This document shows positions 7,791-59,142 of a stretch of DNA of 64,000 nucleotides, in pieces. Each line of letters starts with the position of its first letter. Position 1 is the first letter of the stretch. The notes under the pieces are model-generated. The model had not been told where the DNA came from. It saw nothing but the letters and a program-made list of their open reading frames with translations, and did no database searches. Source of the stretch: Nemertoderma westbladi (taxonomy: Eukaryota > Animalia > Xenacoelomorpha); contig JAUCBJ010002777.1 in assembly GCA_032718475.1 (NCBI GenBank), positions 1 to 64,000 on the forward strand, in the 5' to 3' direction. The translations under genes and the position numbers were made by a program.

Positions 7791-7858
7791 GCTTGAAACA
7801 ATATTTGTTTTTCACATTCGTTATTTAGTATATGATACTTTTGAAGAACATTGACACA

Positions 7859-34529: not shown

Positions 34530-37500
34530 AAAGATGAAATGTTGTTTATACCAGGACGATCTCGAACAAAATATAAATTAAATAATTATGAAGGACGTGC
34601 TTTCTCGATTGCTGCTCCGATTATCTGGAACTCCCTCCCCGGAGATGTAAGCCACGCTGCTGGACCCCTGCTTTCTCGATCGCTGCCCCGACTAACTGGA
34701 AATCCCTCCCCGGAGATGTAATCTACGCTGGACCCCTGCTTTCTCGATCGCTGCTCCGACTATCTGGAACTCCCTCCCCAGAGATATAAGCCACGCTGGA
34801 CCCCTGCTTTCTCGATCGCTGCTCCGACTATCTGGAACTCCCTCCACAGAGATGTAAGCCACGCTGCTGGACCCCTGCTTTCCCGATTGCTGCTCCGACT
34901 ATCTGGAACTCCCTCCCCAGAGGTGTAAGCCACGCTGGACCCCTGCTTTCTCGATCGCTGCTCCGACTATCTGGAACTCCCTCCACAGAGATGTACGCCA
35001 CACTGGACCCCTGCTTTCCCGATTGCTGCTCCGACTATCTGGAACTCCCTCCCCAGAGGTGTAAGCCACGCTGGACCCCTGCTTTCTCGATCGCTGCTCC
35101 GACTATCTGGAACTCCCTCCACAGAGATGTACGCCACACTGGACCCCTGCTTTCCCGATTGCTGCTCCGACTATCTGGAACTCCCTCCCCAGAGATGTAA
35201 GCCACGCTGGACCCCTGCTTTCTCGATCGCTGCTCCGACTATCTGGAACTCCCTCCCCAGAGATGTACGCCACACTGGACCCCTGCTTTCCCAATCGCTG
35301 CTCCGACTATCTGGAACTCCCTCCACAGAGATGTACGCCACACTGGACCACTGCTTTCTCGATCGCTGCTCCGACTATCTGGAACTCCCTCCCCAGAGAT
35401 GTACGCCACACTGGACCCCTGCTTTCCCAATCGCTGCTCCGACTATCTGGAACTCCCTCCACAGAGATGTACGCCACACTGGACCACTGCTTTCCCGATT
35501 GCTGCTCCGACTATCTGGAACTCCCTCCCCAGAGATGTAAGCCACGCTGCTGCACCCCTGCTTTCTCGATCGCTGCTCCGACTATCTGGAACTCCCTCCC
35601 CAGAGATATATGCCACGCTGGACCCCTGCTTACTCGATCGCTGCTCCGACTAGCTGGAACTCCCTCTCCAGAGATATACGCCATGCTGGACCCCTGCTTT
35701 CTCGATCACTGCTCCGACTAGCTGGAACTCCCTCCACAGAGATGTAAGCCACGCTGCACCCCTGCTTTCTCGATCGCTGCTCCGACTAGCTGGAACTCCC
35801 TCCACAGAGATGTAAGCCACGCTGGACCCCTGCTTACTCGATCGCTGCTCCGACTAGCTGGAACTCCCTCTCCAGAGATATAAGCCACGCTGGACCCCTG
35901 CTTTCTCGATCGCTGCTCCGACTATCTGGAACTCCCTCCACAGAGATGTAAGCCACGCTGCTGGACCCCTGCTTTCTCGATCGCTGCTCCGACTATCTGG
36001 AACTCCCTCCCCAGAGATATAAGCCACGCTGGACCCCTGCTTTCTCGATCGCTGCTCCGACTATCTGGAACTCCCTCCCCAGAGGTGTAAGCCACGCTGG
36101 ACCCCTGCTTTCTCGATCGCTGCTCCGACTATCTGGAACTCCCTCCACAGAGATGTACGCCACACTGGACCCCTGCTTTCCCGATTGCTGCTCCGACTAT
36201 CTGGAACTCCCTCCCCAGAGATGTAAGCCACGCTGGACCCCTGCTTTCTCGATCGCTGCTCCGACTATCTGGAACTCCCTCCCCAGAGATGTACGCCACA
36301 CTGGACCCCTGCTTTCCCAATCGCTGCTCCGACTATCTGGAACTCCCTCCACAGAGATGTACGCCACACTGGACCACTGCTTTCTCGATCGCTGCTCCGA
36401 CTATCTGGAACTCCCTCCCCAGAGATGTACGCCACACTGGACCCCTGCTTTCCCGATCGCTGCTCCGACTATCTGGAACTCCCTCCACAGAGATGTACGC
36501 CACACTGGACCACTGCTTTCCCGATTGCTGCTCCGACTATCTGGAACTCCCTCCCCAGAGATGTAAGCCACGCTGCTGCACCCCTGCTTTCTCGATCGCT
36601 GCTCCGACTATCTGGAACTCCCTCCCCAGAGATATATGCCACGCTGGACCCCTGCTTACTCGATCGCTGCTCCGACTAGCTGGAACTCCCTCTCCAGAGA
36701 TATAAGCCACGCTGGACCCCTGCTTTCTCGATCACTGCTCCGACTAGCTGGAACTCCCTCCACAGAGATGTAAGCCACGCTGGACCCCTGCTTTCTCGAT
36801 CGCTGCTCCGACTAGCTGGAACTCCCTCCACAGAGATGTAAGCCACGCTGGACCCCTGCTTACTCGATCGCTGCTCCGACTAGCTGGAACTCCCTCTCCA
36901 GAGATATACGCCATGCTGGACCCCTGCTTTCTCGATCACTGCTCCGACTAGCTGGAACTCCCTCCACAGAGATGTAAGCCACGCTGCACCCCTGCTTTCT
37001 CGATCGCTGCTCCGACTAGCTGGAACTCCCTCCACAGAGATGTAAGCCACGCTGGACCCCTGCTTACTCGATCGCTGCTCCGACTAGCTGGAACTCCCTC
37101 TCCAGAGATATAAGCCACGCTGGACCCCTGCTTTCTCGATCGCTGCTCCGACTATCTGGAACTCCCTCCACAGAGATGTAAGCCACGCTGCTGGACCCCT
37201 GCTTTCTCGATCGCTGCTCCGACTAGCTGGAACTCCCTCCACAGAGATGTAAGCCACGCTGCTGCACCCCTGCTGTCTCGATCGCTGCTCCGACTAGCTG
37301 GAACTCCCTCCACAGAGATGTAAGCCACGCTGGACCCCTGCTTACTCGATCGCTGCTCCGACTAGCTGGAACTCCCTCTGCAGAGATATAAGCCACGCTG
37401 GACCCCTGCTTTCTCGATCGCTGCTCCGACTATCTGGAACTCCCTCCACAGAGATGTAAGCCACGCTGCTGGACCCCTGCTTTCTCGATCGCTGCTCCGA

Positions 37501-39635
37501 CTAGCTGGAACTCCCTCCACAGAGATGTAAGCCACGCTGATGCACCCCTGCTTTCTCGATCGCTGCTCCGACTAGCTGGAACTCCCTCTCCAGAGATATA
37601 CGCCATGCTGGACCCCTGCTTTCTCGATCGCTGCTCCGACTAGCTGGAACTCCCTCTCCAGAGATATACGCCATGCTGGACCCCTGATTTCTCGATCACT
37701 GCTCCGACTAGCTGGAACTCCCTCCACAGAGATGTACGCCACACTGGACCCCTGCTTTCCCGATCGCTGCTCCGACTAGCTGGAACTCCCTCCACAGAGA
37801 TGTACGCCACACTGGACCCCTGCTTTCCCGATTGCTGCTCCGACTATCAGGAACTCCCTCCCCAGAGATATACGCCACGCTGGACCCCTGCTTTCTCGAT
37901 CGCTGCTCTGACTAGCTGGAACTCCCTCCACAGAGATGTAAGCCACGCTGCTGGACCCCTGCTGTCTCGATCGCTGCTCCGACTATCTGGAACTCCCTCC
38001 CCAGAGATGTACGCCACGCTGGACCCCTGCTTTCTCGATCGCTGCTCCGACTAGCTGGAACTCCCTCCACAGAGATATACGCCGAGCTGCTGGACCCCTG
38101 CTTTCTCAATCGCTGCTCCAACTAGCTGGAACTCCCTCCACAGAGATGTAAGCCACGCTGCTGGACCCCTGCTTTCCCAATCGCTGCTCCGACTATCTGG
38201 AACTCCCTCCCCAGAGATGCACGCCACACTGGACCACTGCTTTCTCGAACGCTGCTCCGACTAGCTGGAACTCCCTCCCCAGAGATGTACGCCACGCTGG
38301 ACCCCTGCTTTCTCGATCGCTGCTCCAACTAGCTGGAACTCCTTCCACAGAGATGTAAGCCACGCTGCTGGACCCCTGCTGTCTCGATCGCTGCTCCAAC
38401 TATCTGGAACTCCCTCCCCAGAGATGTACGCCACGCTGGACCCTTGCTTTCTCGATCGCTGCTCCGACTAGCTGGAACTCCCTCCCCAGAGATGTATGGC
38501 ACGCTGCTGGACCCCTGCTTTCTCGATCGCTGCTCCGACTAGCTGGAACTCCCTCCACAGAGATGTAAGCCGCGCTGCTGGACCCCTGCTTTCCCGATCG
38601 CTGCTCCGACTATCTGGAACTCCCTCCCCAGAGATGCACGCCACACTGGACCACTGCTTTCTGGAATGCTGCTCCGACTAGCTGGAACTCCCCCCCCCCC
38701 CCCCCCCCCAGAGATGTACGCCACGCTGGACCCCTGCTTTCTCGATCGCTGCTCCGACTATCTGGAACTCCCTCCCCAGAGATGTACGCCACGCTGGACC
38801 CCTGCTTTCTCGATCGCTGCTCCAACTAGCTGGAACTCCCTCCACAGAGATATACGCCGAGCTGCTGGACCCCTGCTTTCTCAATCGCTGCCCCGACTAA
38901 CTGGAACTCCCTCCCCGGAGATGTAATCCACGCTGGACCCCTGCTTTCTCGATCGCTGCCCCGACTAACTGGAACTCCCTCCCCGGAGATGTAATCCACG
39001 CTGGACCCCTGCTTTCTCGATTGCTGCTCCGATTATCTGGAACTCCCTCCCCGGAGATGTAAGCCACGCTGCTGGACCCCTGCTTTCTCGATCGCTGCCC
39101 CGACTAACTGGAACTCCCTCCCCGGAGATGTAATCCACGCTGGACCCCTGCTTTCTCGATCGCTGCTCCGACTATCTGGAACTCCCTCCACAGAGATGTA
39201 AGCCACGCTGCTGCACCCCTGCTTTCCCGATCGTTGGTCCGACTATCTGGAACTCCCTCCCCAGAGATGTAAGCCACGCTGCTGGACCCCTGCTTTCTCG
39301 ATCGCTGCTCCGACTATCTGGAACTCCCTCCCCAGAGATGTATGGCACGCTGAAACACTGACTTTATTTAAATCCCGACTGAAAACCCACTTTTTACACA
39401 GGAATATTGCTAATTTTATTATAGAATAATACTTTTTAATGTGTATTTGTATTTGTATAGGCCTAGTGCATTTTTAATCTAATTGTATTTTAGACGAGTT
39501 GTTTTTTAGTAGTGATTTTCTTTTTTAGTTGTTTTTACTGAAATTGTTGATAAATTTTATTTATTTTTATAAATATCTATGTGGTACAGAAAGGTCTGGG
39601 CAGAAAGGAGCTGTATAAATATTTTATTATTATTA
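34530..39635 (+). mobile_element. L2/CR1-type LINE 3' end hosting an internal satellite
   Basis: LFIPGRSRTK...GRAFSIAAPIIWNSLP before the array and AETLTLFKSRLKTHF after it. AT-rich 3' UTR ending gctgtataaatattttattattatt. Confidence 0.8.
34598..39351. repeat. Satellite, 68-bp unit (71-bp variants) with higher-order duplication
   Basis: Unit TGCTTTCTCGATCGCTGCTCCGACTATCTGGAACTCCCTCCCCAGAGATGTAAGCCACGCTGGACCCC. The variant pattern recurs at a 1026-bp offset (identical ORFs at 35127 and 36153). Confidence 0.96.
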
Positions 39636-40565
39636 TGAATAATATCAAATTTCGGCCCCTTTAGCCTTTATTATACTGTAATAGAAAATTATAACACAGT
39701 AATATAATAAGGCACCTGGTCAGAAGGAGGAACAATTAGGAAGGATGTTATAGAGGGTTGAACCTGCGCTGTATTGTACCATTTCAGGTTAATAAATGAG
39801 GTAGATTGCTGTATTTAATAACCTACACGATGGTAAGGTTGTATGAGTTTATGTGTATTATTGTTTCAGAAGAATATAACAATTGTGGTGTAAAAAATAT
39901 ATACCGGATGTTCCATAATGATCCCCCCCCCCCTGGCCAGCCAAAACTACCAGACATGTACTTTAGTGTAATATATCATTCGAAAGATAATTTAATTCTG
40001 AGCTTGCATGCAAAAGTTTAGGGCCCAATACGAAAGTATAAAAATTGTATAGTCAATTCTTTAAACCTATCTTACTTCCAGGTCAGGTTTGGTCAGGTCA
40101 GGTCAGGTCAGGTAGGTCATTGATCAAGAAAATTTGTCACCTCCATGCAGCATAAAGGAGGTGCCACCTGTAGCTGCTTACACCCTCGTACTAGGGCAAA
40201 TCTGGTCCTGTAACTAGGACACCCTTCGTTCTGGGATAAGGACGCCCTTGGTCCTGGATTAAGGACCCATATACTTGGCTGCAGGGGTATATGGCCTGAC
40301 CAGGCAGATGGTGATCTACCAATGGCTGGTCAGGAGTAGAGTGTTCTCATGTCCACTCTGAGTACACTTCACTGCGACCTGCACCTGGCAGCAAGGGTAC
40401 AGGGCATGACCCAGCAGATGAGCTGCACAGCCAATGGTCGGTCATGTGCGCCATAGTAGATATGGGTGATGGGCCTCATATCTGACTCCATTGCGACACC
40501 CACCCTGTGGAATGGCAAACCAGGGTGTGGTATTTGTCCCGAGAGCTAAATCGTCAAATCTCTAA

Positions 40566-41106
40566 TGTTAGCTTATTCAATCCCGCCAACACCCCATAAA
40601 GTTATAAGCCGATAAGCAATATTGGGAGCCACGAGATTGGGCAATTAACCAACTCGTGCCATCCCAATAAGAGTGGGAAGGAAGCACACAATAGAGGGTC
40701 AGGGGCCAAACCCCTAACCCAGAGAGAACAGGTGGAGTGAACGGGAATACTCCACGGGGCGCCAACAAGGGTATCAACCAATCAGAGGGGGGCAAGGCAT
40801 CGATTGAGTAGCAATAAGGCCACCGTGCAATATAACCAATAACCTATTAATCAGTGATTCAGTTATCTCAGTGCAGCAGTGCTAGCGTAGGTTGGTAGTC
40901 AATTAGTTTAGTTAGGGGATCACGGGACTTTAGTTACCGTATCCCGCCTTGTACACATTATATCTATATCTATATCCTATGCCCTATTATTATTATACAC
41001 CGAACTTCAGAACTCAGTTACTTTATTTCACCCTTATACACGGCGGGGACGCGTGGACTAAATTACCACACCGGATAAATCGGGATCCCTCCTGGATCCC
41101 GTCACA
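40566..41106 (+). repeat. 5' LTR
   Basis: TGTTAGC...CCCGTCACA; no differences from the 3' LTR seen by eye. TATA-like AATATAA at ~40829 with TCAGT initiator-like motifs ~25-40 bp downstream. Confidence 0.97.
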
Positions 41107-41186
41107 GTAACTAAATCCGAGCTGCCGCCCCAGTTAAACTCTAAGAACTACACTGCTAGCTAGCCGAACTCCACCGACCAGACGAG

Positions 41187-44100
41187 ATGAGTGAATCGGG
41201 CGAGACACCGACGCGGACCCCGGACGAAGATCAAACGATCCGCGAGGCCGCGACCAAGCGATACAGGCCCACGACGCCGGAGCCATCGATAACGGGCGAA
41301 CCGGAAGTCCAGAACGAGGAGAGTCTGGAACCCGAAGTCGAGCCAAGAGAGAAAGAGAGCGAGATGGAGGGAGATGGAGACGAGTCGACACGAGACGGAG
41401 AACGGCACGCCGATGTCGCCGGCCAGCTACCGGCCGAGGGCGACGAGCGGCCCACCGAAACGGCGACGGTGGGGCCGACGGTGCGACGCCGGACGCGAAG
41501 AGACGGAGGAGAGATCGGTACCGATGTCACCGGCCAGCTACAGGCCGAGGGCGACGGACGGCCCACCGGAACGGCGACGGTGGAGCCGCCGGTACGACGT
41601 CGAACCCGGAGGGACGGAGGAGAAGTCGGCGAGGAGGACGTCGGGGTCTCTGAGCGACTTCGACGAGCCTACATCGCGGCCCGGAGGATGCTAAAGGATG
41701 CCAAAAAGGAAGGGGCGAAGGTAGACGAGGTGAGACTGAGAAAGCGACTAGGTGAGTCGGATAGACACTTTAATTATCTAATACGTTTTGGGCAGAGAGA
41801 ACTAGCCGAAACGAGAGCACATGAGATTGCCGGGGAACTGTTTGAACTATGGGAATGTGGGAGTATGGAACCTAGCGTAGCATCAGTGTACATAGGGCCA
41901 TACTTGGTCGATGCCCGGGGAGTAAAACCGGCGGGTTGGAGGGGACTCGAAGGGGGCGAATCCGAGGTTAACCCCGAGGATTCGGCCTCGTCGGTCGGAG
42001 AAAGCTCCGGGAAGCGGGGGAAAGTTGGTAGGTCGGGAAGGCGGGGGAAGTCCGTCGTAACCGATAAGTCTGTTACATCCTCCGCGAAAGAAAGAGCGGT
42101 GAGGGAAATAGGTGCCGCATACCGTCTCAGCATGGCAGAGCAAGGTCAGAGAGAAATGAAGGAACGGCTAGAGGAGGGGAGAGTGCGGTTAGAGAGGGAA
42201 GCGGCATTGCTTAAAGAAACCGGAGAGAGGGCCGAAAGGGCTTTGAAAAGCCTAAGGGAGTATGATGAGATAGAGGAAAGGGAGTGTAGGGAGCGTGAGG
42301 CGAGAGAGGAAAGGGAACGCAAGGAGCGTGAGGCAAGGGAGGAAAGGGAACGCAAGGAGCGTGAGGCGGAACGCAAGGAGCGTGAGGCAAGGGAGGAAAG
42401 GGAACGCAAGGAGTATGAAGCGAGAAGGGAAAAGGAACGCAAGGAGTATGAAGCGAGAAGGGAAAAGGAACGCAAGGAGCGCGAAGTGAGACGAAGGGAG
42501 AGCATTAAGAGTGCTGCAGAGTCGGCCATCAGGGACACCCAGGAGCGTGAGAGGAGAATGGCAGAGACTGAAAAAGAGCGCAAGGAATTAGAGAGACGGC
42601 AGAGTGAGTTTGCGGGAGATAAGATTAGACGGGCGCACGAGTTGCAACTCATGCGAGCAACGCCGTCTGAAAGCGGGGCCGGCTCGAGTATTTTTGAGGA
42701 GCCGGGGGCCGTGGATACATTTATTAACACCCCACTGACAGGGACCGCACAACAGACCCAAAACTGGTGTGACCGTACAGGCGGGGGGGGGGGTAATAAT
42801 AATAATGGTACAGTAGACGTTGTTAATATTAATAGTACCGTATGGGATAACTCTAACCAAACCTTTATTACAGGGAATGCTTTACATAGTGGTAGTAATT
42901 TAAATTTAAATCAGAACGCCCCTAGTATTAATGTAGGAAATAATTCTGATATTAATGTAGCTACGCAAAATAATTCAAATAATCAAAATAATAACCCAGA
43001 TTCGAATCTACAAAATAATTTAAATAACGCAATTACGCAAAATAATTCGAATAATTTAAATAATGACCTATGCCCGAATTTACAAAATAATTCAGATAAC
43101 GTAGTCGTGCAGAATAATACAAATGATTTTGTTTCAAACGAGCAAATTAATTCCGTTTCCAATATGGGTGCTATTAATGTAAACACGTCAGGCCTACATA
43201 ACCAGGCGGAAGAGGGCCTGGTAGGTCGCATAGTCGGTAGCCAGACGGATGAGGGCCTGGTAGGCCACGTAGTTAGTAGACAGGGAGCAGAGGGCCTGGT
43301 AGGCCACGTAGTTGGTAGGCAGGGAGTAGAGGGCCTGGAAGGCCACGTAATAGCAGAGGGAGAGGCGGGGGTAAATAGACCCGACCGTGGTAGGGTTGAT
43401 GTGTCGACTAGAGAGGTATATAATAGCGGGGAGAGAGGTAGCGAAGTTAGATGTAGCGAGTGGGGGGGGGGGCTACGAGGACCCCACAACAGAGAGTTAG
43501 CGGCGAAAGGGGGGGGGACAGGGAGTGTCCCACAGCCGTCAGCGGATAATGCGAGGGCCGAAATAGGTAAACTGCAACAACCGGCGACGGAAAGTAACAG
43601 GGGGATTGTGGGTATCCCCAGCGGCGTGCGACCGAGCAGAGAGAGACAGGTTGACGTCGCGAGAGGGCGGACGAAGCGTCGTGCCCGATCAGAGGAGGGA
43701 AGAAGAACAGTGGGGTTTAACCGGGAGGTCGACGAGAGATCTCGCGAGCGGGAATATTCCACTGATAGGAGAAGAAAGGAAGACAGTAGTAGAAGTATCG
43801 CCGCAAACGATAGAAGAGCGAGGACGGACAGCGAGCCGTCGGTAGTCGAGATGAGAACGGAGAGTCAGTGGGGTCGGACTCCGGGAGATTGCCGTCGCCC
43901 CGGAGGGATGCGATCCGGTGAGACGCATTACACGCCGAGAGAGGGGTACACGATGTACCAGTACGAAGATGAAAACAGTAGAGAGGGGGGTCGAAGAGAA
44001 ACTTTCCGACCGAATATACCTACCCGTCGAGAATACGGTAGCCGCGGGGAGGATTATTCAAGAAGAATAAACTTCGATCCCGAGCAACACATGCAGACTG

Positions 44101-44396
44101 TAGGGCATACTGTAGGTCTTACTGCAGATACCGTAGGCCATACTGAGAGAGGCAATGTAGGCGATAGGATAGCGTGGACAACGGGATTAAACCCGGAAGT
44201 CGCGGAATACATACCGGCGGGTAGGCCAGAAGCTGATAGGCCTATACCGGTACCAGCACAGCAGTATGACTACAGCATGCAGGGACATAACATATACCCA
44301 GGGGAGGGGGGAATTATTGCGGATAGGTGCATGGGCCCCAACATATTAACATCAACCCCATTACCAAACATACCGGTGGGGGGGGGGACAGGGTGA
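41187..44396 (+). CDS. gag: N-terminal part of BEL Gag (acidic repeats, E/R coiled coil, Asn-rich tract)
   Basis: 1069-aa ORF starting 80 bp after the LTR. Joins the next ORF if one G is removed from the G10 run at 44378-44387. Confidence 0.75.
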   Translation: MSESGETPTRTPDEDQTIREAATKRYRPTTPEPSITGEPEVQNEESLEPEVEPREKESEMEGDGDESTRDGERHADVAGQLPAEGDERPTETATVGPTVRRRTRRDGGEIGTDVTGQLQAEGDGRPTGTATVEPPVRRRTRRDGGEVGEEDVGVSERLRRAYIAARRMLKDAKKEGAKVDEVRLRKRLGESDRHFNYLIRFGQRELAETRAHEIAGELFELWECGSMEPSVASVYIGPYLVDARGVKPAGWRGLEGGESEVNPEDSASSVGESSGKRGKVGRSGRRGKSVVTDKSVTSSAKERAVREIGAAYRLSMAEQGQREMKERLEEGRVRLEREAALLKETGERAERALKSLREYDEIEERECREREAREERERKEREAREERERKEREAERKEREAREERERKEYEARREKERKEYEARREKERKEREVRRRESIKSAAESAIRDTQERERRMAETEKERKELERRQSEFAGDKIRRAHELQLMRATPSESGAGSSIFEEPGAVDTFINTPLTGTAQQTQNWCDRTGGGGGNNNNGTVDVVNINSTVWDNSNQTFITGNALHSGSNLNLNQNAPSINVGNNSDINVATQNNSNNQNNNPDSNLQNNLNNAITQNNSNNLNNDLCPNLQNNSDNVVVQNNTNDFVSNEQINSVSNMGAINVNTSGLHNQAEEGLVGRIVGSQTDEGLVGHVVSRQGAEGLVGHVVGRQGVEGLEGHVIAEGEAGVNRPDRGRVDVSTREVYNSGERGSEVRCSEWGGGLRGPHNRELAAKGGGTGSVPQPSADNARAEIGKLQQPATESNRGIVGIPSGVRPSRERQVDVARGRTKRRARSEEGRRTVGFNREVDERSREREYSTDRRRKEDSSRSIAANDRRARTDSEPSVVEMRTESQWGRTPGDCRRPGGMRSGETHYTPREGYTMYQYEDENSREGGRRETFRPNIPTRREYGSRGEDYSRRINFDPEQHMQTVGHTVGLTADTVGHTERGNVGDRIAWTTGLNPEVAEYIPAGRPEADRPIPVPAQQYDYSMQGHNIYPGEGGIIADRCMGPNILTSTPLPNIPVGGGTG

Positions 44397-44430
44397 CATT
44401 CCCCCATCACAATATCAACAATATACCCCG

Positions 44431-47112
44431 ATGGTAGCAAGAACAACGAGACCCTTGGACGAAAACAGGTCGTGCGACACAGATATATGGAGGGGGCCGC
44501 TACCCCCGATGACATACCCAAGCCAGAGAAAGTCAAGAAATAGGACAGACGGAACGCATCAGCCAGGGGAAACTATACAGCACCCGTTGAATCCATTGGA
44601 AGCGCAGGCGATAGGGATGGCCACGTTGATCGATGCTTTGAAAACGAGGATCGAGTTACCACCCGTGGAACCATTCAAGTTCGATGGGAGTAGGCCGGAA
44701 GAATATCTACAGTTTCGGCGAATGTATAGTAACGAAATACTAACAATAAACTTGACACAGGCGGAGTGCCTAAAGTATCTACAAGTGTACACGGGAGGCC
44801 CAGCATACGACATTGTGAGGCAATATCAGGGAATAGAGGGCGGCTTCACGACAGCATGGCGGGCACTGGATAGGGAATACGGGCACCCGGCCAAGATCAT
44901 CAGGCAGACACTGAGAGGCATAACATCGGGTGGCCTACAGGATAAGCCCGTTAGCATCAAGACGTTTGCTAACAAAGTCGAAAAGGCGCTAATCGTGCTG
45001 AAGACGCTAGACGCGCCGTACGAGCTCAATGCGTCCAACAACATCACCACGATAGCGCAGGCACTACCAAACTGGCTGCGCAACAAGTGGAGAAAAATCG
45101 CCTTCTCCACTCGAGATAAGAAGGGTGCGGAACCGGGTTTAGAAGAAATGTCAAACTTCTTAAACTACGAGGCTGAACTAATAACTGACCCAGTCTATAG
45201 CGAAGACAGCCTGGGAAAGGGACCGAAGACAGACTACCATAGACCAAAACCAGAGCACAACACATCGAACGCATTACCGAGACTCAGGCAATCATTGCCA
45301 TATGCAGCAACGCAGGGGACTGCAAGTCCACAGGCAAACGAAGATAAGACAACATCATGGGACGGACAGGGGAACAATAACAACATGAATAAACATAACC
45401 CCAGTACGTCCAGTAGGCCAAATCCAGTCAACAAGAATAGTAGGGACTTTGGTACGAATATAACTGCGATACGCAATGCATTGTATAAAGAGGGCTACGA
45501 CCCAAAGAGCAAATGCCAGTTACACGCAAATGCGCTTCATAAAACCATGAACTGCAGGTACTGGCAGGCGCTACCGAGGCAAGACCAGATAGATTACGCG
45601 TCGAGCAATAAAATCTGCTCGCGATGTGTGAAGAGTGGACACAAGGCCAGGGAGTGCCAAGAGAAGCCGGTCAAGTTTGGCCAAAGGAGAGGCCAAACGA
45701 TGGCAACGAGCACGGTAGGGGCGAAGAAGAGAGGCACGGTGTTACTTGGAGTAGTACCGGTGCGAGTGATCGGGGAGGGCAATCGATCAGTAACAACACT
45801 AATGCTGATTGATAGTGGAGCTGCCTTCACATTAGTCGAGGAATGGGTAGCCGAAGAAATAGGATTGAGAACAAGGCCAAGCAGAATGGCGGTAACAACC
45901 ATCTCTAGCAAAGATGAGATCCTAGAGATGAGGACAGGACGGTGCGCAATTGCAGCAGTGGCACCAGGATGCGATTATGGGGCAACCATCGACCCCATCC
46001 AAGTAATAGAGTCAATTAACATCAATGCCAGGCGGCCAACCAACATCGAGGTCGAGCAATACAAATTCCTGGACGACATTGACTTCTCGATCCCAGACGT
46101 GGACATTAGGAAGGTATCCATCATAGTAGGAATGGACTGCCCGACGGCCCATGAAAGAATGCAAACGGTCTTCGGCGAAGACAAGCAGAGTGACCCGGTG
46201 GCCATATTAACACCATTCGGGTGGACACTGACAGGCCCAATTAAGAGTAATATACCATTCCATGTGTCCGAGAGTTCAGGATGCATGGTGCCAGGAACTG
46301 ACGAGATAGAGGAGAGGCCAGAGATGGGCAATAGTGGTAGACAGCTAGAAGTAGAAGCAACACCAAGAGAGTGGGCGGAGGAGAATGGTATGGATGCAGA
46401 AGATCTAGAGACGATGGGTTGGAATAAGGGTCCCAGCAAGTATCGGTATGGAGATGGGGAGGAGCGGACGGTGGAGTGTCGGGAGGACAAACCGGAGAAG
46501 TGTCCGGTGGAGTGTCCAGAGGAGCGCCCGGAAGAGACGCCGGTCCGGTTGAGAGGCATACCGACAAGGGGGAAGCCGAGTAAGAATACAAGATGGAAAG
46601 GGAGAAGATGTGAGACAATCAGACCAGGGGCAGAGAAGCCCATGAATAAACATATGGTGGACAAAGGAGGCGGGAGAGTAGGAGGCGTGCTGCGTACGCA
46701 CGCGGAACTGACAGAGTGCGAGGGGGCATTACATGGGCAGACATCGTGTATACCGAAGGACGAACAGGGGTCGTTGAAGCCTTTAATGCCAGCACACATA
46801 TTAAGGGGGAGGCCAGCAGAGGTGGCATCTAAGATTAAGGAGAAGAACAGGGGCGGCATTATACCGCCGGGTGACACGTTGAAGGGTGGCACTTTGCCGC
46901 CAAGGGACGACCACGAGATCAGAAACATAAATAACAGACAGCATTTGCCAAAACAGGAGAAAAGACCACCTATCGAATTGACAAGGAGAGCGGAGCGAAG
47001 AATTAGAGAACCTATAGGGGGGCAGTGGGAGAGTTGCCTGCTGGAGGAATCACCCCTTGGGTCGCTGAGTTGTCCAACAGGTTGGACTGGGATGGAAGAG
47101 TTAGATCCGTAA
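44431..47112 (+). CDS. gag-pro: BEL Gag core (DUF1759-like) + zinc knuckles + aspartic protease + vestigial pol tail
   Basis: PFKFDG..EEYLQF...LKYLQVYTGGPA...AWRALDREYG; CQLH....HKTMNC; CSRCVKSGHKAREC; VPVRV...LIDSGA; AILTPFGWTLTGP. No Y/FxDD RT core and no integrase DDE core. Confidence 0.88.
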   Translation: MVARTTRPLDENRSCDTDIWRGPLPPMTYPSQRKSRNRTDGTHQPGETIQHPLNPLEAQAIGMATLIDALKTRIELPPVEPFKFDGSRPEEYLQFRRMYSNEILTINLTQAECLKYLQVYTGGPAYDIVRQYQGIEGGFTTAWRALDREYGHPAKIIRQTLRGITSGGLQDKPVSIKTFANKVEKALIVLKTLDAPYELNASNNITTIAQALPNWLRNKWRKIAFSTRDKKGAEPGLEEMSNFLNYEAELITDPVYSEDSLGKGPKTDYHRPKPEHNTSNALPRLRQSLPYAATQGTASPQANEDKTTSWDGQGNNNNMNKHNPSTSSRPNPVNKNSRDFGTNITAIRNALYKEGYDPKSKCQLHANALHKTMNCRYWQALPRQDQIDYASSNKICSRCVKSGHKARECQEKPVKFGQRRGQTMATSTVGAKKRGTVLLGVVPVRVIGEGNRSVTTLMLIDSGAAFTLVEEWVAEEIGLRTRPSRMAVTTISSKDEILEMRTGRCAIAAVAPGCDYGATIDPIQVIESININARRPTNIEVEQYKFLDDIDFSIPDVDIRKVSIIVGMDCPTAHERMQTVFGEDKQSDPVAILTPFGWTLTGPIKSNIPFHVSESSGCMVPGTDEIEERPEMGNSGRQLEVEATPREWAEENGMDAEDLETMGWNKGPSKYRYGDGEERTVECREDKPEKCPVECPEERPEETPVRLRGIPTRGKPSKNTRWKGRRCETIRPGAEKPMNKHMVDKGGGRVGGVLRTHAELTECEGALHGQTSCIPKDEQGSLKPLMPAHILRGRPAEVASKIKEKNRGGIIPPGDTLKGGTLPPRDDHEIRNINNRQHLPKQEKRPPIELTRRAERRIREPIGGQWESCLLEESPLGSLSCPTGWTGMEELDP

Positions 47113-47299
47113 AAGGTGCGGGCAGAGGTGTTACCTGTCTATTAGAAGGGGCACCTTAACAGAGTTAGAGAGAAGTTTAGTCGTCCAAGTTTTGGACTGA
47201 GGGGGGTGGGATTGAGGGCGAGACGCCCTTCCCACAAACAAAATAATAAAAATAAAAAAATAGTACATGGTAGGTACGCAGTTAGTAGGCAGAGAGTTA

Positions 47300-48070
47300 G
47301 TAAGAAGGTACGTAGTACCTAGTTAGTTAGTTAGTTAGTTAGGAGGTACGTAGTACCGCCAGTTAGAGAGTCAGTTAGAGGGTACGTAAGTACCGTTAGT
47401 TAGTTAAGTTAGTAGGTACGTAGTACCTAGTTAGAGAGTTAGTAGGTACGTAGTACCTAGTTAGAGAGTTAGTAGGTACGTAGTACCTAGTTAGAGAGTT
47501 AGTAGGTACGTAGTACCTAGTTAGAGAGTTAGTAGGTACGTAGTACCTAGTTAGAGAGTCAGTTAGAGGGTACGTAGTACCGATAGTTAGTTAGAAAAGT
47601 TAGAGGGTACGTAGTACCAATAGTTAGTTAGAAAGTTAGAGGGTACGTAGTACCGATAGTTAGAGAGTTAGAGGGTACGTAGTACCTAGTTAGAGAGTTA
47701 GTAGGTACGTAGTACCTAGTTAGAGAGTTAATAGGTACGTAGTACCTAGTTAGAGAGTTAGAGGGTATGTAGTACCGATAGTTAGAGAGTTAGAGGGTAC
47801 GTAGTACCAATAGTTAGAGTTAGAGTTAGAGGGTACGTAGTACCGTCAGTTAGAGTTAGAGTTAGAGGGTACGTAGTACCGCTAGTTAGAGTTAGAGTTA
47901 GAGGGTACGTAGTACCGCTAGTTAGAGTTAGAGCTAGAGGGTACGTAGTACCGCTAGTTAGAGTTAGAGTTAGAGGGTACGTAGTACCGCCAGTTAGAGT
48001 TAGAGTTAGAGGGTACGTAGTACCGCTAGTTAGAGTTAGAGTTAGTAGGTACGTAGTACCATTAGTTAGA
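47300..48070 (+). repeat. Array of ~23 GGTAC-GTA-GTACC hairpin motifs with AGTTAG/AGTTAGAG linkers (30-38 bp period)
   Basis: Counted directly in the sequence; lies between gag-pro and the extra ORF. Confidence 0.95.
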
Positions 48071-48680
48071 AGAGAGAGAGTAAGAGGTAAAAGGGGTAAA
48101 TAGGATATAGATATTAGTTAGCAGTAAGTAGAGTCAGTAGCGAGAGGGGGGCATATGAGTACAGCTGGATAAATCGTGTGGCCACACGACGCATACTGCT
48201 GTACTGCATGGGCCCACAGAGTAGGCCAGAATATAGATCAGAGAATAGAATAAACCCATAGGCAGTAGTAGGTAGTAGGACAGTAGAATCAAAGCAAACA
48301 AACAAATAAATAGAATAGGGCTAAAAATCGTAAAATAGTGGCAACACAAGGGAAGTCATTCTAGAACATAATAAAAGTAACGGACGGAAATTGTAAATTA
48401 GGCTGATTTACTAGCTCCGAAATTAATTAGGTTAAATTTAGCTTGAAAGGCGCAATTAAGTAGAAAGTAGGCCATTATCGAACTGTACGAAACATCTTAA
48501 ATACTTCACTCATCTGTATTGCGCCTTGGTAAGGCACCACCCTGCAGGTGAGCGAGTGTAGTGTTCGGAATGGCGAGTAAGCTGATCAGGAAGAGAAAGG
48601 CGGAGTCAGGAGGAAAAGAAATATTGGTGGATTTCACCGAAAGACACCCGGAAGAGAAGACGAGAGGATACTAGAAGAGG

Positions 48681-51104
48681 TTGGAAAGGGGTCACGCGGC
48701 ACGAGCGCTGCAGGATCACTTCCGGGAGGCGCACGAACAGCGGCTGGTCGGGACCTACGGGACCCCGTCACTAGACAACGCGATCTTCCAACACTTCCAC
48801 TACGTGGTGAAAGGGGACGAGGCGAAGTTCGGGATTCCGAAGTATCCGAGGGAATCGCCGAGGAAGGACTGGAAAAGATTCATAGAGTCCGTCAACAGAG
48901 GAGGATATATGATCCTAGATGACGAGGGAACCGTGGAAGACGAAGCGGGTTCGAGACGAGGAACGGCAGGGTCGGCCAGGACCATACTCCTACATTTGGC
49001 CGCGCCAAATGGGGACATCTTCTTATTCGACCTAGGGACGTATGGGAAGAAGGACGGGCCGAAATTAGACCGATTGCCGAAAGCGGTACAAGTATTAGTA
49101 AGAGAGAAGTCGACGACGAAAGTGGGATCGGCGATTCGCGAGGATGCGGAGAGGATCATCGGTCCGGACGCCACCAACCTCCTGGATATGCAGAAAGTCT
49201 TTATGGCTATGACGGCACCGGATGGATTGGGGGTGGTCGAGAACACAGGCCAATGCGGGGCGGTGGCGATGGGCCAATTATTGGGGCTCGTATGCCACAA
49301 ACCAATGGATTGGGGGAAGTTTAGGGAAGAATACGGAGCAGAACTAGCGAACTCGCTGAAGTGGGGAGCGAGACCGGGAAAGCAGGAGGTATATCAGTTT
49401 CGCAGAGGTGCGATAAAGGTATATCAGAAGCGATATATCCTGCAGGAGGACTGGATGATGATAAGTTTGCTTAACTTATTCATGACCGTAGTTATCGAAA
49501 GGGAACCAGGGGCATTTCTGTTATCGGGATCACCCCTAAGCTACAGGAGAGCCTTTAAGACGGCCTTTGACGGTCTGGTAGACCACCCGGGGCTGAAGGG
49601 CGAGTCGGTGTACTACAACAGCCGACATCTGGTAGACGGGGAGACAGATACACCGTATCAGAGATGGGAGCAGCTAGAGGCGGACAGACGAGAAGCAAAG
49701 CGACTGGAAGAAGTCGCTAGACGGGAGAGGATAGAAGCAGAGGAGAGGGAAGAGGAGGCCAGGGCACAGAGTTACGGCTTCGAGGAACAGGCGGGCCTAG
49801 ACGAACTTCATTGGACTTCGTCAGGGAGTTCGGGGGAGTCTCTAGGGCGAGAATTGGGATGGACGGTGGGATCGCCGAAACAGTCGACGTCGGGGTTGCA
49901 AACGATGCCCATACCAGCGGGCGCCGAGGGCGACCAACCACCAAGGAAGTTAAGGGAGCTAGAGGGATGGAGAGCTACGGGCGAGAGCCAAGGCGGGAAG
50001 GGACATAGTGGATCCATCGGGATACCGGGATTGGAGACACTACCAGAAGAGGAGGACGACGACGACGAGTTCGGAGAGATGCCGCCCATCGAGAGGATAG
50101 GCCACTCGGACACGGACTGGGTTGGCGGAAGGGTGGTGACGGCCAGTGGGGCGAGGGCCTTCTGGAACAGATCCGGCAAGCGGACCTGGGTGCACGAGGA
50201 GCCGGCGATGGATTTCGCGGGGAGCACCATCAGGTTGGGCGAGCAACCGGGGACGGCACCACGGATAGTATTCGGGGAGACGATGCCCGAGAGGGGCGGA
50301 GAGATCGACGTAAACAGGGAGAGCAACGTAGAGAAGTTCGCCTACCAGCGACTCCATAGACCGCGGAGATCGCTTGGGACGAAAGACGAGGTGGGATGGG
50401 AGACATTGGTACTCGGCTGCGACTACTGTGGGAGACAGACCCATTGGGAAAGCGGCTGCCTATACCGGTTCCAAAAGGGAACCTTTTGTCTCTACTGCAG
50501 AGAACCAAGTCACAGGATGGGGGCGTGTCCACGGTTGCATAACCGATGTCCAAAGTGCCACTTTCGGGGACACTACGGGCGCGAGTGCGACTGGATGAGC
50601 GACGAGGAGAAGTTCACAAGATTCGAGGAGTGGGCCGACGTCGGGGCCATGACGCGCCAGCGCATGAAGGCCCAAGAGTTCAAGTGGGGTTTCTTCCTCA
50701 TAAACCAGGAGACCCACATGGAAATCATAAAGCGAAGGTTACCGTTTACCTATCAAGAGGTAGCAACGGCGGCGTCGTTCGCCGGAGTTATGAACACGCA
50801 ACGGTACCTGGACAGGTGGACACCAGAGAACCGGAGGGAGTTTAGGGATTTCTTGGCGGAACACGTACCAAAGGCAATGAAAATGATCCTATGGGACGCC
50901 ACACGAGGGAGACAACCAGGCCATTCTGAGGGGCCACCGGCGAAGCGGTATCGGGCATTAATAACACCAGCGCCCAAGGAGCCAACGACCGGGATCAGCA
51001 AGGAAGTGGCGGCGAAGGTCCGGAAGCAGAAAGCGGATGATGCCAGAGGAGCGGTGATAACCAAGAAACGGGCCAGGGAAGAGGACGTGAGGAGGAACAG
51101 ATAA
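48681..51104 (+). CDS. DEDDy/RNase D/WRN-like 3'-5' exonuclease fused to three CCHC zinc knuckles (extra ORF of the LTR element)
   Basis: ExoI ILDDEG; LLHLAAPNGDIFLFDL; LPKAVQVLVREKSTTKVGSAIREDAERI (ExoII); LLDMQ; QKRYILQED (ExoIII-like). Knuckles CDYCGRQTHWESGC, CLYCREPSHRMGAC and CPKCHFRGHYGREC. An in-frame ATG at 48570 is separated from the ORF by one TAG at 48672. Confidence 0.75.
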   Translation: MERGHAARALQDHFREAHEQRLVGTYGTPSLDNAIFQHFHYVVKGDEAKFGIPKYPRESPRKDWKRFIESVNRGGYMILDDEGTVEDEAGSRRGTAGSARTILLHLAAPNGDIFLFDLGTYGKKDGPKLDRLPKAVQVLVREKSTTKVGSAIREDAERIIGPDATNLLDMQKVFMAMTAPDGLGVVENTGQCGAVAMGQLLGLVCHKPMDWGKFREEYGAELANSLKWGARPGKQEVYQFRRGAIKVYQKRYILQEDWMMISLLNLFMTVVIEREPGAFLLSGSPLSYRRAFKTAFDGLVDHPGLKGESVYYNSRHLVDGETDTPYQRWEQLEADRREAKRLEEVARRERIEAEEREEEARAQSYGFEEQAGLDELHWTSSGSSGESLGRELGWTVGSPKQSTSGLQTMPIPAGAEGDQPPRKLRELEGWRATGESQGGKGHSGSIGIPGLETLPEEEDDDDEFGEMPPIERIGHSDTDWVGGRVVTASGARAFWNRSGKRTWVHEEPAMDFAGSTIRLGEQPGTAPRIVFGETMPERGGEIDVNRESNVEKFAYQRLHRPRRSLGTKDEVGWETLVLGCDYCGRQTHWESGCLYRFQKGTFCLYCREPSHRMGACPRLHNRCPKCHFRGHYGRECDWMSDEEKFTRFEEWADVGAMTRQRMKAQEFKWGFFLINQETHMEIIKRRLPFTYQEVATAASFAGVMNTQRYLDRWTPENRREFRDFLAEHVPKAMKMILWDATRGRQPGHSEGPPAKRYRALITPAPKEPTTGISKEVAAKVRKQKADDARGAVITKKRAREEDVRRNR

Positions 51105-51804
51105 GTTCCCAGAGACGAGGGAGTGAGACTGAGACTGGGACGTGGTGCGCCTGGAAGGCGCCGCATACAACGTACGAACCATTAAGTACAAATTTAATTA
51201 ATGCAAATAATCATATAAGTGCAATTTGTATGTACGTACGTAGTAATTAGCAGTAAAATACACGATCGGAGTAAGTACTATAGTCATACAACCTTTCTCA
51301 ACTAGCTAGTGGGACTGGGGGATAACTGACTATGGCACTATGGACGAGACGCCAGACAATTTCACACTTCTTGAGTGCGACGGCACGAGAGGGGGGGGAG
51401 ATTCGTCAGAAGGGAAGAGACAGTCGAAGTGAGGTTGAGGGACGGAATAATAGTGCGGAGTGCGGAGAGAGTGCCGATGCAATTCCAGTGTGGGGGGGAG
51501 AATAAGAGGCTGAGTAAGGGACGAGGAGGTCCGAATGTGAGAGAGTTAGGGTGAGAGTGAAGGTGAGATAGGGCGAAAATGTTGGGGAAACAAAAGTTGC
51601 GTGGGAGGTGAGCGCGATCGGCCCGACATGAGACGCCAGGCACACAGGGTAGCGTTATCATACCCATAGGGGGCGGCCTGGAAAGCCGGCTCCTAGAGAA
51701 AAGAATTCCACCCCACACCCGATACTAGATTGGGATCCAGCGGGATTGTAGCGCACTTTTAGGTTGATGCTATCTTCTTACCGGGAAGATAGCATGGGGG
51801 GGAG

Positions 51805-52345
51805 TGTTAGCTTATTCAATCCCGCCAACACCCCATAAAGTTATAAGCCGATAAGCAATATTGGGAGCCACGAGATTGGGCAATTAACCAACTCGTGCCA
51901 TCCCAATAAGAGTGGGAAGGAAGCACACAATAGAGGGTCAGGGGCCAAACCCCTAACCCAGAGAGAACAGGTGGAGTGAACGGGAATACTCCACGGGGCG
52001 CCAACAAGGGTATCAACCAATCAGAGGGGGGCAAGGCATCGATTGAGTAGCAATAAGGCCACCGTGCAATATAACCAATAACCTATTAATCAGTGATTCA
52101 GTTATCTCAGTGCAGCAGTGCTAGCGTAGGTTGGTAGTCAATTAGTTTAGTTAGGGGATCACGGGACTTTAGTTACCGTATCCCGCCTTGTACACATTAT
52201 ATCTATATCTATATCCTATGCCCTATTATTATTATACACCGAACTTCAGAACTCAGTTACTTTATTTCACCCTTATACACGGCGGGGACGCGTGGACTAA
52301 ATTACCACACCGGATAAATCGGGATCCCTCCTGGATCCCGTCACA
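51805..52345 (+). repeat. 3' LTR
   Basis: Same 541-bp sequence as 40566-41106, preceded by the PPT. Confidence 0.97.
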
Positions 52346-55300
52346 TCTAACCGCATCTCATGCCACGATGCCCGTTGCCACTTCTCAGTTGTTCTGGAAG
52401 ACTGGCTAAGAAGTTCCCTAAGGAACTAGTGTTGCCAACTAGTGTTGCCCCTGTAGAGGAGGTGGAAAATTTCCACCACAATCTACAAGCAGCTACTGAT
52501 GGAGTGGATCAGCAGCATGCATTCTTACCATTCCTGGGAGACTTTAATGCAAGTCTGCATCAATCACCTATATCGCCCTGGGCCTATAGCAATAGTGTTA
52601 ACCGAAATTCCATCCATCTTCAGGATTTTATCTCTGGAAATGGATTGTTTTCGGCTGGAACCCAGTTCAAGAAGCAAACTGGAACGCTATGGACTCATAG
52701 TGGACCCAGTGGTCACAAGTCCCAGATAGACCATATTCTATACATAGATAGACCATAGTCTATACAAGACTGTAATGCATTTACACTTCGACCCTTCTCC
52801 AGTGATCACCGCGTTATTGTGGCCAAGGTAAGACTTAGTCTGCGTGCTAGCAGAACAACGAAATCTGCCTTGCCGCGGCATGACTGGTCCTCTCTGTTCC
52901 AACAGCCAAGTGTGAGATCCCGCTTCACATTACAGCTGAGCAACAGGTATGAGGCTCTTGCCTCTGAGGCGGCAGATTACTGTGAGGGCTATACTGCCTT
53001 CACAGAAGCAGTTAAGTTAGCAGCTGCAGAAACAGTTCCTGTATACCCTCGAAACAGGAAAAGGGCCCCCTGGACTGACAACAAAATTCAGAAGTGCCGA
53101 AATTACCTATAAAAGGCGCAGAAAGAGTCGCGCTCAAACAGACTGCAGCGGCCAAGAATGCAGTTAAGGCTGCATCTAGGTCCCTGAACGGGCAGTACTC
53201 TGTTAATCTACAGGAGCTAATAAACCAACAGGTTGATGCCATCAATGATGCTGACGACAGCAGGCAATCATCCCAGGCATGGAAATCGATCAACTTGCTT
53301 ACTGGTCGGAAAAGCCAACCAACCACCAAGGTTAAGGCTGAATCACCTGCCGATCGCCTCAATGGTTGGAAGGCCCACTTTGAAAAGCTCCTCAATAATG
53401 ACAGGGTATTGCCTGATAACTTTATAGAAGTAAAAGTGTCTGAGTCTGTACTCCCAGATTTTCCCATTGGCGATGCCTCCTTTGCAGAAGGGAAGACTGC
53501 TGCAAAGAGAATTAAGACTAATCGTGCCAGTGGAGTAGATGGTGTTCCCCCTGAGGTCTTTAAAATACCTGAGTGTTTAGAGCTCATCTATCCCATCATA
53601 GTAGACACTGGCACTTAGTTTGGCACTTAGAAGGATAATTGAAGAGATATCAAAAAAGAAAGACAGGCATCTGGCTGTTATCTTTGTTGACTTCTTCAAG
53701 GCCTTTGATTCAGTCTCTCGCTCACGTATGTTCAGCATACTTTCATTATATGGGATTCCTGATGAAATTATTGCAGCAATCAGATCAGTATACGATGGTT
53801 CGACAACATTTGTGTCTACTGTTGATGGTGACACACTTCGAACGAGCTTCACACTAGAACAAAATTGCCTCCGCTTTGCAGGACATTGCTTTCGCCGTGA
53901 GCACCAGCCAGTGCATAATCTTGTAGTTTGGCAGGCTCATGGAGTGAATAAGCATGGTGGACAGCCCATGACTTTCTTGAGACGCATCTTAAAGGACACT
54001 GGCGTTGAAGATGCGGATGATCTAGCAAATGTCATGGGTGATAGGGAGTTGTGGCGGCGCAATTTTGTCGATAAGCCGGCACAGCATTCTTAAAAATGCA
54101 GCAGCAATGCAGCATGCCGATCCATCATCATATTCTTCCAATATTTATGATTTAATCACAATTAAAAAATATATATAACTTATCCAGCGTTAGTCATCAG
54201 AATTGCAACCCTGTTTAAACAGTTATTACTGCCTGACTTTTGAAGTGCGGTCAATTCCCCCTTCCCCCTTCGACATGTTTGATAAAGGTACAATACTACT
54301 AATATGCAACGTACCCAAATATCGCAACAAACAACAAACTATTATTATTAACTATTTGTTTTAGCAGCTAATTCGTCAATGAAATCATAAGTTTTGATTG
54401 ATTTGAAAACCAACTTGCCTAATTCTATATGATTAATCATTGTCAATGTATCAGTGCAATATATATAGGCCTAGACTTTATGCCTATGGTAACTAAATAC
54501 GGCCATCTGTTTCTACATTATACAGTAGCCAATTCTAAATGATATTTTTTATCTTTATCTCCCAGCAGTGCAGTGCTGGCCTGGCCTGGGTCCATTTCTC
54601 TTGAACTTCGAATTGATTTGATTTCACCTTTAGATTTCAAGTTTCAACTGAGTCCACCACACTGAATCTATACGAAACAAGAATCGTATTATTATCTTTA
54701 CCGGTTAAAAGATCGCAATACGAGCTATGAAACAATTAATACAGTACTACTACAGTATTATATTAACCATATAATATGGTGTATTGAAATATTCCCCCCA
54801 CCCACCCCCCTAAAAAAATAAAAAATGGACCCTCCCCCCACCCTCTCTCCGTAGCTTCTGCAGATATTTTTTCCAATAACCATTTATTACAGTCGCCAAT
54901 AAGCGACATTTACAATTAGACTGTTTATGTGGTGTCTGACTGTCGGTCGGTCTGTCTACCCATATAGTCCATAACACACTTTACTTTTACGTACATACAA
55001 TACATACAGTGTAATTTTGAAAAGGTATTATACGATTGCTACTATATGATATTTTTATTTCATTATTTAGCATTAAAACAATGTTTAATAAACCTATTTA
55101 AAGTATCCCCTTCTCCTTCCCCTTCTCCCCAGAAGTCTCTAAGTCATGATTTTAATATGATTTCGGAGATAGGGAGGAAACTGAACGCAAATCACATCTT
55201 AGGCGAATTAATCGTCTCAAGTTACAGTGGGACGTTATTTTAACCAAAACAATAAACTAAAGTCAATAGAACAGGATACAGTTTTAATTTTTCCGAGTAA

Positions 55301-58400: not shown

Positions 58401-59142
58401 ACAACTACATTCCTTATCATTTGACCCAGTTACACCGTACAACTACAATTCCTTATCATTTGACCCAGTTACACCGTACAACTACATTCCTTATCATTTG
58501 ACCCAGTTACAACTACATTCCTTATCATTTGACCCAGTTACAACTACATTCCTTATCATTTGACACAGTTACACCGTACAACTACATTCCTTATCATTTG
58601 ACCCAGTTACACCGTACAACTACATTCCTTATCATTTGACCCAGTTACAACTACATTCCTTATCATTTGACCCAGTTACACCGTACAACTACATTCCTTA
58701 TCATTTGACCCAGTTACACCGTACAACTACATTCCTTATCATTTGACCCAGTTACACCGTACAACTACATTCCTTATCATTTGACCCAGTTACACCGTAC
58801 AACTACATTCCTTATCATTTGACCCAGTTACACCGTACAACTACATTCCTTATCATTTGACCCAGTTACACCGTACAACTACATTCCTTATCATTTGACC
58901 CAGTTACACCGTACAACTACATTCCTTATCATTTGACCCAGTTACACCGTACAACTACATTCCTTATCATTTGACCCAGTTACACCGTACAACTACATTC
59001 CTTATCATTTGACCCAGTTACACCGTACAACTACATTCCTTATCATTTGACCCAGTTACACCGTACAACTACATTCCTTATCATTTGACCCAGTTACACC
59101 GTACAACTACATTCCTTATCATTTGACCCAGTTACACCGTAC
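55425..59142. repeat. Minisatellite, 38-bp unit TACAACTACATTCCTTATCATTTGACCCAGTTACACCG (31-bp variant)
   Basis: About 100 tandem units. Confidence 0.97.

Follow-up and report, generated by a model that had tools for sequence, protein, structure and literature searches.

The DNA analysed here is a stretch of 64,000 nucleotides (nt) from Nemertoderma westbladi, referred to below as the window, and the element under study occupies positions 40566-52345 on its plus strand. It is bounded by two long terminal repeats (LTRs) of 541 bp with TG..CA ends, located at 40566-41106 and 51805-52345, which have the same sequence. The target-site duplication (TSD) TCTAA flanks the 5' LTR (40561-40565) and recurs after the 3' LTR (52346-52350), and a polypurine tract of the form G7AG (51796-51804) lies directly before the 3' LTR. 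Identical 541-bp LTRs, an intact 5-bp TSD and a polypurine tract had already been described in an earlier reading made from the letters alone (the sequence-only reading), and all three hold. There are 0 differences over exactly 541 bp, which bounds the LTR divergence at less than 0.6%, and this copy was inserted recently. Such LTRs, a short TSD and a polypurine tract are also the structural features of BEL/Pao retrotransposons. The interior has three long plus-strand open reading frames, ORF1 (41160-44396), ORF2 (44350-47112) and ORF3 (48675-51104). These frames, their domain matches and the coordinates of a tandem hairpin array bear out the proposed layout of Gag-protease, hairpin array and ORF3.

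The first two frames represent a BEL-type Gag and protease. ORF1 (1078 codons) is of low complexity and is likely the front of Gag; it had no match in Pfam, and its E/R-rich stretch weakly matches the E/R-rich N-terminal region of BEL polyproteins. ORF2 (920 codons) codes for a DUF1759 capsid (about 44680-45096, Pfam E 5.5e-10), a CCHC knuckle (45616-45657) and an aspartic protease (Asp_protease_2, Pfam E 4.5e-5) with a DSG motif near 45811, while the Pfam search of this frame returned no reverse transcriptase (RT), RNase H or integrase family. Among 4094 candidates, all four longer ORF2 homologues (P0003-P0006, one of them from Amphibalanus amphitrite) are full BEL polyproteins with Peptidase_A17 and DUF5641 at 21-23% identity. 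A profile of BEL polyproteins matches the Gag domain with E 4.8e-15 and the protease domain with E 3.5e-23; its alignment spans Gag, the knuckle region and the protease, ends near 46270 at the protease end, and leaves an open tail of 280 codons. The BEL/Pao origin that had been suggested is thus confirmed by DUF1759, the protease and the homology to BEL polyproteins. As these polyproteins are encoded in a single frame and have an E/R-rich front like that of ORF1, ORF1 and ORF2 probably make up a single Gag-Pol front that is interrupted by a run of ten G (44378-44387) in the overlap of the two frames, where the frame changes. This change may be a sequencing slip, a mutation or a frameshift site.

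Neither Pfam nor the BEL polyprotein profile gave an RT or RNase H match anywhere in the element, so that the order protease, RT, RNase H, integrase of autonomous elements is absent. With LTRs and Gag-protease but no RT, the element has the composition by which TR-GAG-type non-autonomous elements are defined. The sequence-only reading had considered both RT and integrase to be dropped, which is correct for the RT; the integrase, however, is not cleanly gone. A relic of the late BEL integrase core is found at 46690-46810, and a frame-shifted relic at about 46990-47159 corresponds to the C-terminal domain of integrase (DUF5641) together with the former end of pol. The two scraps are in the right order, the second lying outside the ORF2 frame. 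None of 300 shuffles reached the overall score of the relic and none of 100 that of either scrap, the second being taken here as 46990-47153; a separate shuffle test of the integrase relic gave 2 of 1000. The stretch 46270-46690 is unrecognisable as pol, as 85 of 100 shuffles score equally well. Across the relic, ORF2 continues for 280 codons without a stop, for which retention of the old pol frame is the sole explanation we can offer; none of 1000 shuffles stays open as long.

Since the LTRs are identical and pol has already decayed, the decay predates the insertion. Thus, RT loss most likely preceded the insertion of this copy, which would have moved in its RT-less form; mobility of that form in trans we regard as very probable. 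It might be argued instead that an ordinary full-length element was inserted and suffered a one-off deletion afterwards, as this copy has other breaks, the G10 junction and a TAG codon before ORF3. The decay of the relic, however, cannot be reconciled with identical LTRs in this scenario, and the same relic was found in sequencing runs of three studies, so that a one-off deletion is highly improbable.

The latter evidence comes from a comparison of the window with contig sets from sequencing runs (X1, X2, X3, X5 and X6). X2 and X3 each contain contigs near-identical to the relic, which depart from it at 0-2 positions over 120-152 nt, and an X6 contig differs from the window at 9 positions and by 3 gaps in 465 nt; these relic-bearing contigs stem from three studies. 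Differently deleted relics are also present. These observations come from 32 of the 8608 pieces and 15 of the 19 joints in the scan of 45300-47285; no second full-length copy of the deleted structure was seen. In one X6 contig, all five differences in the last eight pol codons are silent by our reading, which suggests, as a hint, that there are relatives which still translate pol. An X6 contig that is 97% like the relic (window 46723-47187) starts with letters that resemble a template-switch adapter for complementary DNA (cDNA), in which case X6 may be a cDNA library and the RT-less form may be transcribed.

ORF3 extends over 809 codons from stop to stop. The long frame that had been reported is real, but its 807-residue version begins at a TTG codon. 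Directly before ORF3, an in-frame ATG is followed by 34 codons that end in TAG (48570-48674). This TAG (48672-48674) cuts off the likely start codon at 48570; the next in-frame Met is at 48909, and the silent-biased variation described below starts upstream of it. The sequence CAG-GTGAG at 48537-48553, 22 nt before the ATG at 48570, resembles an acceptor and a donor at once; if the ORF3 message is spliced, its acceptor may lie here. A splice that used the donor-like site at 41751 was rejected, as by arithmetic it would leave ORF3 out of frame with ORF1.

A likely DEDDy 3'-5' exonuclease domain was located at 48858-49520 by profile alignments. It is separated by about 300 low-complexity residues from three CX2CX4HX4C zinc knuckles (50418-50588), which agrees with the three CCHC knuckles noted before. 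The predicted active site consists of D (48918), E (48924), D (49143), Y (49434) and E (49446), with a D (49449) adjoining the latter. All three of the DEDDy/WRN/RNase D-like motifs that had been named are present, and ExoI DxE and the ExoII D are in register with the family profile, but the last acid is E rather than D.

Support for the nuclease domain comes from directed profiles that were built from bacterial PF01612 proteins; the WRN-like profile retrieves WRN, EXD2 and Mut-7 first in PDB. A mixed DEDDy profile aligns with ORF3 with an hhalign E of 1.2e-4, and ExoI and ExoII are in register. The hmmsearch score of ORF3 was reached by 0 of 1000 and 2 of 1000 shuffles and by none of the 320 other frames of the window, and none of 200 shuffles was as good in local hhalign (z 5.5). 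When ORF3 is placed in a multiple alignment, its residues D, E, D, G, W, Q and Y coincide with invariant columns, and an E takes the position of the ExoIII acid; the Y of the ExoIII motif YxxxD and the preceding Q align, with a weak column test. Judged from its sequence, ORF3 very probably has a DEDDy fold, and the profiles provide moderate support for a domain of the RNase D/WRN type.

Several results weigh against this assignment. All blind searches with ORF3 were blank in Pfam, PHROGs, NCBIfam and PDB, no real homologue was found in 1.84 billion proteins, and there was none among 7996 candidates of 443-1413 amino acids from a search of 5.8 billion clusters. The WRN-only alignment reached no better than E 0.021. 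Global hhalign was not significant (67 of 200 shuffles as good), the invariant-column test was weak (9 of 300 shuffles as good; conserved columns not significant), and the ExoIII acid aligns as E with the D next to it. AlphaFold without an alignment gave no usable fold, with a predicted local distance difference test (pLDDT) score of 31.7. When guided by a supplied DEDDy alignment, the score rose to 72.6, and the model matched RNase D, NrnC, Nibbler and TbRND (Z up to 13.5, root mean square deviation 2.9, 167 residues aligned). As the model was driven by that alignment, it and its structural matches are circular and express compatibility only. The structure prediction that had been recommended as a check of the DEDD fold is thus compatible with a DnaQ-like fold when guided and uninformative when unaided.

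Other searches were likewise negative. PF01612 gave no match to ORF3 at E up to 10, the Pfam cut-off thus not being reached; no match was found in plasmids, phages, metagenome or viral contigs; and in 38 of 301 bacterial genomes there were matches at E up to 1, all no better than chance (best 7.6e-4). The single match in the 1.84 billion proteins (P0002) is a repeat protein with 19 residues matched and was dismissed. The blank blind searches, the low scores (4.9 bits by hmmsearch) and the weak or negative directed tests (WRN-only profile, global hhalign, column test) are what would be expected if the DEDDy resemblance had arisen by chance and ORF3 were a conserved orphan with zinc knuckles. 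However, the hypothesis was fixed beforehand, the ORF3 score exceeded those of all 200 shuffles in one test, of all 1000 in another and of the 320 remaining frames of the window, and the motifs are collinear through ExoIII. We consider a chance resemblance to be rather improbable.

It is a more serious possibility, though still a doubtful one, that ORF3 carries a catalytically weak or dead DEDD domain which serves in RNA binding, transport or anti-silencing, like Egalitarian or Exd1. The ExoIII acid is E or displaced by one, the three knuckles provide RNA binding, and the (circular) model resembles Egalitarian and Exd1 to about the same degree as it does active enzymes. Inactive DEDD derivatives are named in the biology of PIWI-interacting RNAs (PMC5408684). 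On the other hand, four active-site residues (D, E, D and Y) are retained, and bdelloid ORF3s with a D-to-E variant are thought to be possibly active (PMC5408684). Going by the sequence, we lean slightly towards the view that ORF3 catalyses RNA trimming, beyond binding alone.

The family to which the element belongs is abundant. Contigs that map to 48100-52400 number 9757 in X1 and 5402 in X3 and are mostly 90-99% alike, and 4350 contigs of X1 map to 45300-47285; X5, which is only guessed to be RNA, has 18. Variants were analysed at the best-supported 40 of 657 variable places for the ORF3 region and at the best-supported 40 of 307 for the other region. Thirty-five of the former are within ORF3, and 28 of these are silent, compared to a fraction of 0.30 expected from the substitution mix (P 1e-9). 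In the nuclease domain all 16 listed variants are silent, while in the Gag-end and protease part 28 of 37 are. None of the 12 listed indels is inside ORF3, although low-depth deletions within ORF3 do occur among the contigs. From the silent bias (28 of 35) it follows that ORF3, as judged from these sequences, is under purifying selection across the family, in agreement with the earlier expectation that it does not evolve neutrally.

The silent bias is pooled over all relatives, so use of ORF3 by the RT-less copies themselves does not follow from it. Thousands of diverged contigs tile ORF3, which gives it the look of a family-wide cargo gene, and we find it reasonably probable that ORF3 is common to pol-bearing members and not special to RT-less ones. 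Summed contig depth, which can neither rank parts of a gene nor give copy number, drops about 5- to 9-fold past the protease end (medians from 73.6k to 7.8k in X1, from 38.7k to 4.7k in X3, and from 26.7k to 5.0k in X2), while it remains at 54.9k and 46.6k on ORF3. Pol-bearing relatives and diverged relics alike would cause such a drop, which is thus a lead only.

The explanation that we favour, with modest confidence, is that the element belongs to a large BEL/Pao family with a conserved, likely DEDDy-zinc-knuckle ORF3, that this RT-less copy was inserted recently, and that it was mobilized by RT and integrase of its relatives. Its genomic RNA would be packaged by BEL Gag, and RT and integrase borrowed from pol-bearing relatives would copy and insert it. 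The ORF3 knuckles would bind RNA, and the nuclease would trim 3' ends in or near the particle. The most specific substrate that can be proposed is the element's own primer; alternatively, ORF3 may remove host-added tails, counteract small-RNA silencing, or bind without catalysis. This explanation also has to face several difficulties. Gag is split over two frames in this copy, the start of ORF3 is blocked or ambiguous, no helper element was seen, and the silent-bias figures rest on the best-supported places given above.

A rival explanation develops the satellite partnership proposed in the sequence-only reading: most ORF3 copies would be RT-less and would give Gag, protease and exonuclease to a separate autonomous BEL element in return for RT and integrase. 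The heavy decay of the relic, because of which pol loss may be old, is in line with this, as are the tail that stays open for 280 codons, the silent bias that extends to Gag-protease, the several differently deleted relics, and RLG_Quinta, which supplies Gag to RLG_Cereba, as a parallel. However, the silent bias includes all relatives, pol-bearing or not, the silent differences in the last pol codons point to relatives in which these are translated, and no partner with the same LTR has been demonstrated. We regard such a partnership as unlikely and return to the mobilized family copy as the preferred explanation. Its firm part is a selected orphan nuclease in a BEL family, while satellite partnership and self-priming (see below) are less settled.

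The bdelloid LTR elements Juno and Vesta are Ty3/gypsy-like. They are known to have a DEDDy ORF3 (PMC5408684), which bears out the claim that captured ORFs of this type have precedent. As in the element described here, this is an RNase D-like ORF in the env position 3' of pol, with a D-to-E motif variant (DEED), and 3'-end processing has been proposed for it (PMC5408684). Juno and Vesta differ in that they keep a full pol and are low-copy; in the available text they are not described as BEL and a triple CCHC knuckle is not mentioned (PMC5408684). Bdelloid ORF3 variation, reported there for the env and GDSL types only, looked neutral, whereas ORF3 here is strongly silent-biased (PMC5408684). 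No sequence link between Juno or Vesta and ORF3 was detected. Since the bdelloid description, DEDDy cargo of retroelements has had no demonstrated function or selective value. With such cargo in another superfamily, where it is abundant, recently active and under purifying selection, its role becomes testable.

BEL/Pao elements (Belpaoviridae) share with the element the DUF1759 Gag, the knuckle, the protease and the type of integrase C-terminus found as a relic. Its TG..CA LTRs are inside their range of 0.2-1.2 kb, and some of them, defective copies included, hold a captured gene such as the chuvirus glycoprotein in Anakin (PMC3118150, PMC7642597). The element differs by its lack of RT and RNase H and by its length of 11.8 kb as opposed to 4.2-10 kb (PMC3118150, PMC7642597); its extra gene is a likely nuclease, and identity to the nearest polyproteins is 21-23%. 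RT-less elements have been described as TR-GAG, which keep Gag or Gag and protease (PMC6022998), as RLG_Quinta, which donates Gag to RLG_Cereba (PMC11302176), and as TelKA2n, which retains an ORF3 (PMC5408684). Like the element here, these lack RT and retain Gag, Gag-protease or ORF3, and they move in trans, as the element very probably does; they are from plants or bdelloids and from other superfamilies, and the available texts report no exonuclease in them. DEDDy exonucleases are also cargo of Dada DNA transposons and of Terminons, which are not LTR elements (PMC3706591, PMC6431247). RNase D of Trypanosoma brucei (TbRND, PDB 7C42/7C45) combines a DEDDy domain with a C-terminal CCHC domain and trims RNA (PMC7797062). 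It provides the top Foldseek rows for the guided, and hence circular, model and a weak knuckle match (E 0.84). It is, however, a cellular enzyme which acts on guide RNA (PMC7797062), and its sequence match is not significant. We found no published DEDDy ORF in BEL/Pao, with Repbase and subscription journals outside the search. The statement that the combination is undescribed thus stands for a DEDDy ORF in BEL/Pao, while its two components, the RT-less Gag-protease element and the DEDDy ORF3, have each been reported separately.

The primer-binding-site position (41107-41118), the first 11 nt of which recur in diverged X6 contigs, gave rise to the proposal that the nuclease acts on a primer. 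Primer sites of the transfer RNA (tRNA) type usually start with TGG in LTR elements, but no TGG is found within the first 25 nt after the 5' LTR. Instead, the position is complementary to an LTR segment at 40925-40937, a candidate self-primer, with which it can form a duplex of 9 perfect pairs, a bulge and 3 pairs. At least 9 perfect pairs were reached by 70 of 20000 shuffled LTRs, and 15 of 2000 equalled the duplex energy. In three folds the two segments pair with a probability of 0.93-0.96, the value being 0.93 when the fold extends to 41300; the stability of the leader as a whole is unremarkable (z -1.15). Since the position lacks a tRNA-type TGG and pairs with the LTR, an RNA end produced by a cut would have to be trimmed as far as the duplex. 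The Tf1 primer is the first 11 nt of its RNA, while the primer here would be internal unless transcription begins near 40925. Tf1/Sushi, Tcn1 and TAR resemble the element in having no tRNA-type primer site and a position after the 5' LTR that is complementary to the LTR, but they were described for Ty3/gypsy and Ty1/copia groups (PMC6317226).

The case for self-priming is reduced by a pairing probability of only 0.18 in the shortest fold and by a duplex that is one base short of the published criterion, which asks for at least 10 complementary bp between the LTR and a region 0-5 nt downstream of it (PMC6317226). The candidate also lies about 65 nt inside the presumed transcript, judged by promoter-like motifs, and as the pairing was spotted after the fact it is a lead. 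The motifs are a TATA-like sequence (40830-40835) and an initiator-like TCAGTT (40859-40864). It seems unlikely that the substrate of ORF3 is the self-primer. If true, this would provide a concrete nuclease substrate and a priming mode new to BEL/Pao as far as we found reported, since the literature search returned no report of self-priming in this superfamily. More speculative still is a scheme in which a BEL/Pao lineage gave up tRNA priming, self-primes from LTR RNA and trims the primer with its own DEDDy-zinc-knuckle nuclease, while RT-less copies trade shell, protease and nuclease for a helper polymerase; we regard this as improbable. No Rfam family and no tRNA was found in the sequence searched, and the primer-site sequence is absent from the 7 supplementary files of PMC13524379.

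The hairpin array (47291-48078) consists of about 23 tandem copies of 30-37 nt units. It contains 21 exact 13-nt hairpin cores with a stem of 5-7 bp and a GTA loop, which do not occur elsewhere in the window; C-GNA-G loops are unusually stable in DNA. Two further hairpins with a G-run between them (47181-47233, z -4.36) are possibly an old or internal polypurine tract. As a 12-bp hairpin (z -5.29) precedes the polypurine tract (51767-51804), the combination of a strong hairpin with a G-run on its 3' side occurs twice, here and where pol formerly ended. Contig depth at 47176-47242 is far above that of neighbouring positions in X1, X2 and X3, and this hairpin-G-run stretch may be common to more element families.

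With respect to the surroundings, a broken retroelement at 4944-9127 on the minus strand has RT and RNase H domains that are not of the BEL type (RT_RNaseH E 9.5e-26). The RT at 5740-7505 was ruled out as a helper, as it is not BEL-like and does not match the BEL polyprotein. A weak cysteine-rich metal-binding match (E 2.3e-4, under the cut-off) was obtained for a 154-codon frame at 14340-14804. Adjoining the 3' TSD is a broken relic (52351-54093) that resembles a long interspersed nuclear element (LINE) and has weak endonuclease and RT matches; the LTR element may have landed in the front part of this relic. Large satellites lie on both sides of the element (23544-30489, 34598-39352 and 55426-59142, with units of 65, 68 and 38 bp) and place it in a satellite-rich region.

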